Shown: positions 8,211 through 8,809 of the stretch, piece after piece
Numbering within the stretch: the stretch's first letter is position 1
Layout: every line of letters starts with the position of its first letter
Source of the DNA: a virus
Taxonomy: Duplodnaviria; Caudoviricetes
Length of the DNA stretch: 58,149 bases
Strand: one strand, 5' to 3'
IMG/VR virus record: IMGVR_UViG_3300034351_000038
Location: 1-58,149 of that record
Program-made: the position numbers and the translations under genes
Notes under the pieces: generated by a model
Databases searched by the model: none
The model's input: only the letters and a program-made list of their open reading frames with translations
What the model was told of the DNA's origin: nothing

Positions 8211-8219
8211 TCGTGGTGT

Positions 8220-8286
8220 TGCCAAGGACGGCATTTAACATTTCCGACAAAAGATACACAGGGCAAGGATGCCCCTTTAAAAGGGG
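8220..8286 (+). promoter_or_regulatory. two CsrA/RsmA-type AAGGAY hexaloop hairpins plus an alternative SD-sequestering hairpin in the holin leader
   Basis: TGCC-AAGGAC-GGCA (8220-8233), GGGC-AAGGAT-GCCC (8261-8274), CCCCTT-TAA-AAGGGG (8272-8286). Confidence 0.65.
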
Positions 8287-8293
8287 TAATATT

Positions 8294-8809
8294 ATGGATT
8301 TCGACTGGAAAAAAATAGTGGGTGCAGTGGCTCCGACGCTCGCGACGGCATTAGGAGGGCCGCTTGCCGGGATGGCTACAAAGGCAATAGCAGCAAGCCT
8401 AACCGGAGACGAGAATGCTAGTGAAAAGGAGATATCGCTAGCTTTGCGTGGAGCTACACCAGAAACATTAACGACACTTAAGCAGGCTGATTTAGACTTT
8501 GAAGCAAAGCTCGCAGAGCTTGGCGTAGATTTAGTCAAGCTCTCTATCGAAGATAGAAAAGACGCTCGCTCTATGCAAATTTCTACAAGAAGCCGCATAG
8601 TACCAATTCTCTCTGTATTGACTGTTGCAGGGTTCTTCGTTGCTGTGGGTTGGGTGTTGACTGGTAATGTCACCCTTGATTCAACGTTGCTTGGTTTTGT
8701 TCTTGGCCAAATAAGTGCTAAGGCAGAGCAAGTGTACAATTACTTTTTTGGGTCTTCTGTAGGTTCTAAAGAGAAGACATTCCACCTTGCGCGCAAGAGC
8801 GAAAAATAA
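8294..8809 (+). CDS. holin-like membrane protein (3TM/GTA holin type)
   Basis: APTLATALGGP N-terminus, DRKDAR, TM segments, YNYFFGSS.GS motif; AAGGGG SD. Confidence 0.7.
   Translation: MDFDWKKIVGAVAPTLATALGGPLAGMATKAIAASLTGDENASEKEISLALRGATPETLTTLKQADLDFEAKLAELGVDLVKLSIEDRKDARSMQISTRSRIVPILSVLTVAGFFVAVGWVLTGNVTLDSTLLGFVLGQISAKAEQVYNYFFGSSVGSKEKTFHLARKSEK

Follow-up and report, generated by a model that had tools for sequence, protein, structure and literature searches.

Conserved GGA-hexaloop hairpins behind the capsid gene of a tailed-phage clade are candidate CsrA/RsmA-type operators

The stretch of DNA analyzed here (the window) is a 58,149-base-pair (bp) virus record, IMGVR_UViG_3300034351_000038, with an estimated completeness of 76%. 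Its structural module lies on the plus strand at about 3.1–26.9 kb and its replication module on the minus strand at about 26.9–41.3 kb. The structural module is tightly packed apart from a few sizeable gaps, one of which separates the stop codon of the major capsid protein gene from the ATG at 8294 of the next open reading frame (ORF), which encodes a holin-like membrane protein. A first-pass annotation of this 83-nucleotide (nt) gap (8211–8293) had described two short hairpins with C-G-closed hexaloops, and had proposed that CsrA binding to them operates a switch on the holin gene in partnership with a csrA homolog carried by the same phage. Both hairpins were found in the sequence exactly as described, upstream of a Shine-Dalgarno (SD)-like sequence (Table 1). 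Hairpin 1 had also been proposed to extend through two further helices; the outer GUCG/CGAC stem was confirmed, whereas the middle stem forms in a slightly different register from the one suggested.

Table 1. Positions of the features discussed in the window, and hairpins that follow the capsid stop codon in related loci
Feature	Positions	Strand	Details
Major capsid protein gene	7197–8210	+	stop TAG 8208–8210; phrog_247 major head protein, 2.2e-93; Pfam PF20036 Gp13-like, 5.6e-10
Extended hairpin 1	8210–8248	+	−11.3 kcal/mol; outer stem 8210–8213/8245–8248, middle stem 8215–8219/8238–8242, apical part 8220–8233
Hairpin 1 core	8220–8233	+	TGCC (8220–8223)-AAGGAC-GGCA (8230–8233); GGA 8226–8228; pair probabilities 0.74–0.99
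Variable spacer separating the hairpins	8244–8260	+	7 substituted positions within 17 nt among the X13/X17 differences listed
Hairpin 2	8261–8274	+	GGGC (8261–8264)-AAGGAT-GCCC (8271–8274); GGA 8267–8269, 27 nt before the ATG; −6.8 kcal/mol
SD-burying hairpin	8270–8288	+	8270–8277 paired with 8281–8288; −10.0 kcal/mol; minimum free energy and centroid structure; excludes hairpin 2
SD-like AAGGGG	8281–8286	+	7 nt 5′ of ATG 8294; read from the sequence
Holin-like lysis-cassette protein gene	8294–8809	+	171-amino-acid membrane protein; phrog_1544 (annotated unknown function)
Phage csrA homolog	27466–27663	−	65 amino acids; Pfam PF02599, 4.6e-10, 39.8 bits against a cut-off of 27; phrog_9500
Hairpin in L018 and L019			AGCC-AAGGAC-GGCT after the capsid stop
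Hairpin in L101 (= L009/L010)			GGCC-AAGGAT-GGCC after the capsid stop
Hairpin in L164			GGAC-AAGGAT-GTCC after the capsid stop
Hairpin in L149			TTGAC-AGGGAC-GTCAA after the capsid stop
Two hairpins in L108			GAC-AAGGAT-GTC and AAC-ATGGAT-GTT after the capsid stop
Hairpin in L143			AGGCC-AAGGAT-GGCCT after the capsid stop

Capsid-gene relatives were gathered from viral contigs, metagenome contigs and named phages, and the DNA 3′ of each capsid stop codon was compared. The capsid match reached the C-terminus in 161 loci, 115 of which were distinct in their first 80 downstream bases; removal of near-duplicates left 107, a set from which loci with fewer than 60 downstream bases were excluded. 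We then counted C-ANGGAN-G hexaloop hairpins with a stem of at least 3 bp within 100 nt 3′ of the capsid stop codon. Eight of the 107 loci contained such hairpins, 10 in total and all of the form C-ANGGAY-G, which corresponds to 0.94 per kb (10,661 nt). Over the remainder of these loci the counts were 16 in 400,985 nt of the same strand (0.04 per kb) and, for the opposite strand, 21 in 417,937 nt; shuffling the downstream regions 1000 times yielded 0.96 hairpins on average and 5 at most. When the stem filter was removed, 63 ANGGAN hexamers were found in the downstream regions, 10 with complementary flanks of 3–5 bp and 53 with 0–2 bp.

The stems differ between loci, and the loop and its closing C-G pair are constant. 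The two window hairpins are joined by 9 others in reading C-A-N-G-G-A-Y-G on stems of 3–5 bp, so that all 11 have a pyrimidine at loop position 6. As the first-pass annotation had recognized, they conform to the CsrA/RsmA site pattern, a GGA presented by a short-stem loop that a C-G pair closes. Capsid identity across the clade that carries the motif is 54–64% and the sequences flanking the hairpins cannot be aligned, which argues that the loop has been conserved by selection rather than by recent descent.

Capsid proteins were placed in a maximum-likelihood tree of 56 sequences (rows with 53.5% identity or more, together with L014 and L015, from a total of 117 distinct proteins, of which 61 were not included). 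Every motif locus fell in one supported clade of 23 rows, starred in the tree (99/91). Within it the motif occurs in 4 of 4 members of subclade A, in 6 of 8 members of subclade B1 (counting in L097, the same contig as L002) and in 0 of 11 members of the sister subclade B2. Near the capsid stop codon of the two B1 exceptions, L098 has a GGA in an 11-nt loop of a 7-bp hairpin, and L099 has UAGGAUG within a longer hairpin. Capsid relatives in bacterial genomes yielded 14 loci, of which 13 were examined; all 13 had ordinary hairpins, and none gave a clue to the host of the motif clade.

The gene that follows the hairpin is not constant. In L009, L018, L019, L108 and L143 a small lysine-rich ORF occupies this place, in L149 and L164 the gene codes for an MKGL... 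protein, and only the window has the holin-like gene. The earlier claim that the hairpins are specific to holins was thus not upheld, the same hairpin preceding unrelated genes in relatives. The distance from the start-proximal GGA to the ATG varies little, being 27, 29, 29, 30, 28, 27, 26 and 24 nt in the eight loci; the 4-bp core ends 16–22 nt before the ATG, and an A/T-rich stretch and the SD sequence lie between. Because the hairpin keeps the same phase whatever the next gene is, these comparisons indicate that the element belongs to the capsid-to-next-gene junction, not to holins, and the fixed GGA-to-ATG distance suggests that the element acts in initiating translation of the gene that follows. 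Both loci with a longer gap (83 nt in the window and 64 nt in L108) have a second hairpin 9–12 nt after the capsid stop codon, and the two GGAs are 41 nt apart in the window and 20 nt apart in L108.

Two other arrangements were noticed among the relatives. Record G005 has a second, intergenic-looking C-AAGGAT-G hairpin with a CTGTC/GACAG stem (L177, 5220–5235, minus strand). It shares the strand of the capsid gene, is found about 9.5 kb 3′ of the capsid hairpin and precedes an SD-ATG by 36 nt, and hints at repeated use of the motif in some relatives. The Shewanella phage 3/49 group (L013, L038, L151 and L163) conserves a different order, in which the capsid stop codon is followed by (A/T)(A/C)GGATA(A/T), then by a CCCY…RGGG terminator with a T-run, and then by an HNH endonuclease-like gene.

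The first-pass annotation further proposed that the 3′ arm of hairpin 2 overlaps a sequence able to sequester the holin SD, and folding bore this out for the window. CCCCTT at 8272–8277 is complementary to the SD, and hairpin 2 and the SD-burying hairpin have 8271–8274 in common, which makes the two folds mutually exclusive. The naked RNA favors the SD-buried form: in the Boltzmann ensemble of 8190–8330 the four C-G pairs of the SD-burying stem had probabilities of 1.0 and two U-A pairs had probabilities of 0.97 and 0.67. Among related phages the class of hairpin is conserved as reported above; the overlap of the 3′ arm with an anti-SD sequence was not conserved in the 7 loci that were folded.

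Total folding energy of 8205–8310 was unremarkable (z = −0.43). The window contains 6 hairpins with an ANGGAN hexaloop and a stem of at least 4 bp, against 1.85 expected and with as many in 2 of 200 shuffles; 2 of the 6 fall inside the 83-nt gap. A 6-bp hairpin on the minus strand (34127–34144, GAAGAC-ATGGAT-GTCTTC) also fits C-ANGGAN-G; it lies 33–50 nt inside the 5′ end of ORF 33338–34177 (−) and could be chance or another site. No plus-strand terminator-like site was called in 8211–8293, where the stems are 4 bp and there is no T-run. A search of the whole window at the Rfam gathering score gave neither TwoAYGGAY nor a Csr small RNA (sRNA) family, its only match being a tRNA gene at 41363–41436 (−), and a search of 8150–8350 at E ≤ 10 gave two chance-level matches only, PhotoRC-I (minus strand) and permuted tmRNA. 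We rejected a Csr/Rsm sponge sRNA of the CsrB or RsmY/Z type, since there are only two loops, they lie inside an mRNA gap and Rfam gave no match. A DNA palindrome or DNA-level protein site was likewise rejected, given the asymmetry of the loop and its constant mRNA-sense orientation.

Natural variants of the gap were available in X13 and X17, contigs of two other studies that are about 93–94% identical to the window over 7900–8600. Among the differences listed (31 of the 39 in X13), those in the spacer are given in Table 1 and none falls in 8211–8243, which contains hairpin 1. The only one in hairpin 2 is 8264 C>T, which converts the closing C-G to U·G, keeping the pair and leaving the loop intact. 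The changes 8245 C>T and 8247 A>G leave wobble pairs with G8213 and U8211 in the outer helix of the extended hairpin 1. X17 also carries an A inserted behind 8283, in the G-run of the SD, which would weaken the SD-burying hairpin, and the variants differ at 8289 and 8292 as well. A look through RNA runs found none listed as containing the phage.

The csrA homolog reported by the first-pass annotation was confirmed. The first 50–60 residues of its product align with solved Escherichia coli CsrA and RsmE chains (1y00, 2bti and 2jpp), and it keeps R6 and R48, which correspond to R6 and R44 of E. coli CsrA, placing it in the CsrA family. R44 is important in CsrA; among 13 members of the phage protein's subfamily R48 is invariant and R6 nearly so. 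A 4-residue insertion is common to this small divergent subfamily. The gene overlaps the DNA polymerase III alpha gene (27647–30526, −) by 17 nt, and its stop codon is overlapped by the start of a MazG-like pyrophosphatase gene (27086–27466, −). Because it overlaps both neighbors, csrA is probably co-translated with replication genes.

The proposed pairing of the hairpins with a phage csrA was not supported. A tblastn search for csrA in named phages and a single-protein scan of viral contigs gave no match, and a word-index protein search returned only the window's own protein. Relatives of the window CsrA subfamily (36–47% identity) are encoded by 11 viral contigs. No csrA match was found in any of 6 motif-bearing relatives (records 28, 39, 63, 39, 17 and 9% complete; the 60-kb contig of L019 was not among them), and the window capsid family was found in none of 10 records with a related csrA (L192 left out), one of which was rated 100% complete. 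Five csrA-bearing records scanned in full contained 1 C-ANGGAN-G hairpin against about 1.2 expected, that is, no excess. All records but one in these co-occurrence searches were fragments, so the absences are weak evidence. As far as these records reach, the motif and phage csrA do not appear to be a co-inherited pair. It follows that, if CsrA is the ligand, host CsrA would be the general one and the window CsrA at most an addition.

The named phages nearest to the window infect Serratia, Shewanella and Vibrio when judged by the capsid gene and Cronobacter and Vibrio when judged by DNA polymerase; a DNA-level search of named phages gave short capsid-gene matches only. These hosts are Gammaproteobacteria, in which CsrA is common, and they may not be the host of the window phage or of the motif clade.

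The holin label of the downstream gene was sustained for its lysis-cassette context and not for its family. The product matched no Pfam holin family at E ≤ 1, and no Pfam family at all. Distant homologs in L003, L005 and L007 (57, 37 and 35% identity) all start directly after endolysin genes, whose products are GH108 with PG_binding_3, GH108 and Peptidase_M15_4. Because these homologs adjoin endolysin genes, we infer that the product is a lysis-cassette membrane protein that is holin-like by association. The homologs share an MDFDWKK/MSFNLK N-terminus; that two of them begin with the MDFDWKK of the window protein speaks for ATG 8294 as the start codon. GTG 8213 was rejected as a start because the N-termini of the homologs correspond to the residues encoded from ATG 8294. 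We also rejected a capsid-holin fusion by frameshifting, as the holin frame is open only from 8204 and 8198–8210 contains no slippery site. No endolysin was found among the 18 window ORFs scanned by PHROG, in a record of the incomplete status given above.

Three small plus-strand ORFs without a PHROG match follow the holin-like gene: 8787–9008, a 73-amino-acid membrane/coiled-coil protein that overlaps the end of the holin-like gene; 9010–9408, 132 amino acids with a signal-peptide-like N-terminus; and 9408–9827, 139 amino acids. They may encode further lysis components such as spanins. Between these lysis-like genes and the head-tail genes lies a 765-amino-acid ORF (9827–12124, +) that consists mostly of repeats of about 20 residues (…DDSLYSYSLEGDLLLTQQNT…) and has no PHROG match at 1e-5. 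Elsewhere, the window encodes an HslV-like peptidase (45773–46261, +) and a thymidylate synthase (49411–50205, +).

An A-N-G-G-A-N loop closed by C-G is the RsmE-type pattern, and hcnA is a canonical CsrA/RsmA mRNA leader. High-affinity CsrA sites have GGA in the loop of a short stem, and systematic evolution of ligands by exponential enrichment (SELEX) gave the consensus RUACARGGAUGU (PMC2896534). As in the canonical glgC leader (PMC2896534), the window has GGA in a short-stem loop, a putative tether, near the ribosome-binding site, and its two loops may lie within the reach of one dimer. It differs from the canonical leaders in that the site is in an intercistronic gap of a phage late operon rather than in a 5′ leader and in that A predominates at loop position 2. 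Where the SELEX consensus has ACA...UGU flanks, the hairpins have G+C stems.

The closest analogue on record is the ColE7 lysis gene cel: host CsrA binds the loop of the intercistronic T1 stem-loop together with a site at the SD, as gel shifts and mutations established, and represses cel translation (Yang et al. 2010, PMC2896534). ColE7 resembles the window in being a mobile element with a lysis gene behind highly expressed genes and a GGA-loop intercistronic stem-loop just 5′ of the lysis-gene SD. It differs in being a plasmid operon, in having a long terminator hairpin as T1 and in that a GGA within the SD provides the second site (PMC2896534). The window instead has two short hexaloop hairpins as putative sites, and its SD lacks GGA and is buried by RNA pairing; in the motif phages the element also precedes non-lysis genes.

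Kinship with the TwoAYGGAY RNA (Rfam RF01731), which had been suggested on the basis of the two-loop layout, did not hold up. Both have two hairpins with N-GGA-Y-type terminal loops. TwoAYGGAY is described as a multi-copy intergenic element with a common basal stem and AYGGAY loops (10.64898/2026.09.22.753630), whereas the window has AAGGAY loops, no basal stem in its folds and no Rfam match at E ≤ 10. An intrinsic terminator or attenuator after the capsid gene, a common phage layout, would have the same position between the capsid stop codon and the next SD; the window hairpins differ from one in their short stem, conserved non-tetraloop sequence and lack of a T-run.

Phage homologs of CsrA/RsmA are known (Campa et al. 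2021, PMC8450108; JC1, PMC9144972; PMC12038007; PTXU04, PMC11879866). Host targets such as CRISPR-Cas have been proposed for them (PMC8450108) or their role has been left open, and the report on csrA knock-down in PTXU04 states that a role in the phage life cycle was not tested before that work (PMC11879866). The window protein resembles these small phage-carried proteins in keeping the RNA-binding arginine, and differs in belonging to a divergent subfamily with its 4-residue insertion. In the portions of these reports that were accessible (PMC8450108, PMC9144972 and PMC11879866) no cis site on phage mRNA is described. In the literature searched, much of it accessible in part, neither a phage late transcript with a CsrA-type operator nor a Csr link to a phage holin was reported, the latter in agreement with what the first-pass annotation had supposed. 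CsrA-type control of a lysis or late gene is thus known for a colicin plasmid, and would be new here as a conserved element of a phage clade.

From the enrichment, the constant loop and the fixed phase, the hairpins are probably a real translation control element. We propose that a 4–5 bp stem, a C-G closing pair and an A-N-G-G-A-Y hexaloop would define a conserved class of small RNA operator in this tailed-phage clade, placed between the capsid-gene stop codon and the ribosome-binding site of the next gene. The most likely binder would be a dimer of the CsrA/RsmA family, with host CsrA as the general candidate and the window CsrA as a possible extra supplier. Bound 20–33 nt 5′ of the start codon, and perhaps bridging to a second hairpin or to the SD, the dimer would keep translation low for a gene that lies behind the very highly expressed capsid gene. 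In the window phage the repressed gene would be that of the holin-like lysis protein, and repression would come on top of the SD burial inherent in the RNA. Repression is favored because the layout matches that of ColE7, with a highly expressed gene, an intercistronic GGA stem-loop, an SD and the next gene. Both CsrA as the ligand and repression as the outcome are what we infer from the pattern, and the full proposal, an operator mainly for host CsrA that represses translation of the gene after the capsid gene, is a tentative one to which we assign somewhat less than an even chance.

Several observations weigh against a repressing CsrA operator. The pair probability of hairpin 2 is about 0 in the naked-RNA ensemble of 8190–8330, and a ligand bound there would tend to free the SD, the opposite of repression. 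X13 and X17 swap the closing C of hairpin 2 for U. A GGA lies inside the SD in only 3 of the 8 loci, so the classic hairpin-plus-SD bridge is not general. The AAGGA loop is itself SD-like. Finally, the pairing statistics of the stems (with 11 instances aligned without gaps, 42 of 44 cells pair, and both sides change in 3 of the 4 pairs) are partly circular, as the rows were chosen by the stem filter, and are descriptive rather than a test.

The activation switch of the first-pass annotation would turn one of these observations to its advantage. CsrA from phage or host would lock hairpin 2, block the 8270–8288 pairing and free the SD, thereby activating holin translation and making lysis timing follow the Csr state. 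There are precedents for activation by CsrA that opens a structure sequestering the SD, the CsrA of the phage keeps the key arginines, and exposure of the SD is what a hairpin-2 ligand would bring about given the dominance of the SD-burying hairpin and the shared 8271–8274 segment. The relatives argue otherwise. As noted above, the overlap between hairpin arm and anti-SD is not conserved in them; both structures coexist in L101, the SD is largely open in L018, L164 and L143, and no co-occurrence of the motif with phage csrA was seen in the mostly fragmentary records searched. In the near variants the X17 insertion falls in the SD G-run and hairpin 2 is weakened in both, and the lysis-gene analogue that was tested gave repression (PMC2896534). 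We regard this switch as quite unlikely, and possible for the window phage only. A broader scheme, in which the early-expressed phage CsrA and host CsrA together act as a timer on late mRNA, the two-hairpin operator sets the timing or amount of the holin-like protein, lysis time reads out the Csr state and, clade-wide, the post-capsid junction is wired to the host Csr system, is unlikely as a whole, if slightly less so.

The remaining explanations dispense with CsrA. The conserved loop, covarying stems and fixed ATG phase demand a specific partner without naming one, so the operators could be recognized by some other RNA-binding protein, of phage or host, or by an RNA whose loop is complementary, their resemblance to CsrA sites being coincidental. 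The motif tracks capsid-gene phylogeny, as it would for a lineage-encoded partner; however, the genes downstream of the capsid gene differ and offer no shared candidate, no complementary-loop hairpin was found in the window's intergenic DNA, and 11 of 11 aligned instances fit the CsrA-type C-A-N-G-G-A-N-G. Such a partner seems to us improbable, though it is the alternative that we take most seriously. AAGGA is complementary to the anti-SD, and the element sits between a stop codon and the next start at a fixed distance, as would suit loops that contact the 16S rRNA 3′ end and hold or recapture ribosomes leaving the capsid gene, thereby tuning re-initiation. We think this very unlikely: SD pairing leaves the invariant closing C-G unexplained, position 6 is always a pyrimidine though G would extend the pairing, AGGGAC and ATGGAT pair worse with the anti-SD, and a hexaloop on a 4-bp stem would be a poor partner for a 5-bp helix. 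No better placed is the view that these are plain 3′ stabilizers or weak attenuators of the capsid mRNA, bound by no specific ligand and keeping their loop by descent only. Most of the 99 motif-free loci do have a conventional G+C hairpin and T-run at the same position, with a loop such as UUCG, GAAA or GUAAAA, and in L018, L019 and L143 a T-run follows the GGA hairpin itself. Against this, the 4-bp stems (−2.3 to −6.8 kcal/mol) are weak for termination, no plus-strand terminator was called in the gap, flanks and stems have diverged at 54–64% capsid identity and the loop has not, and near relatives have freely accumulated changes in the spacer that separates the hairpins.

If the hairpins bind CsrA, an environmental phage clade would couple the expression step that follows the capsid gene, here that of a lysis protein, to global host physiology. 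This would parallel the colicin lysis gene and provide a compact model for post-transcriptional tuning of lysis or of late-gene ratios. If the ligand is not CsrA, the conserved loop would mark another RNA-binding partner. Under either reading the motif is a defined, short and conserved element.

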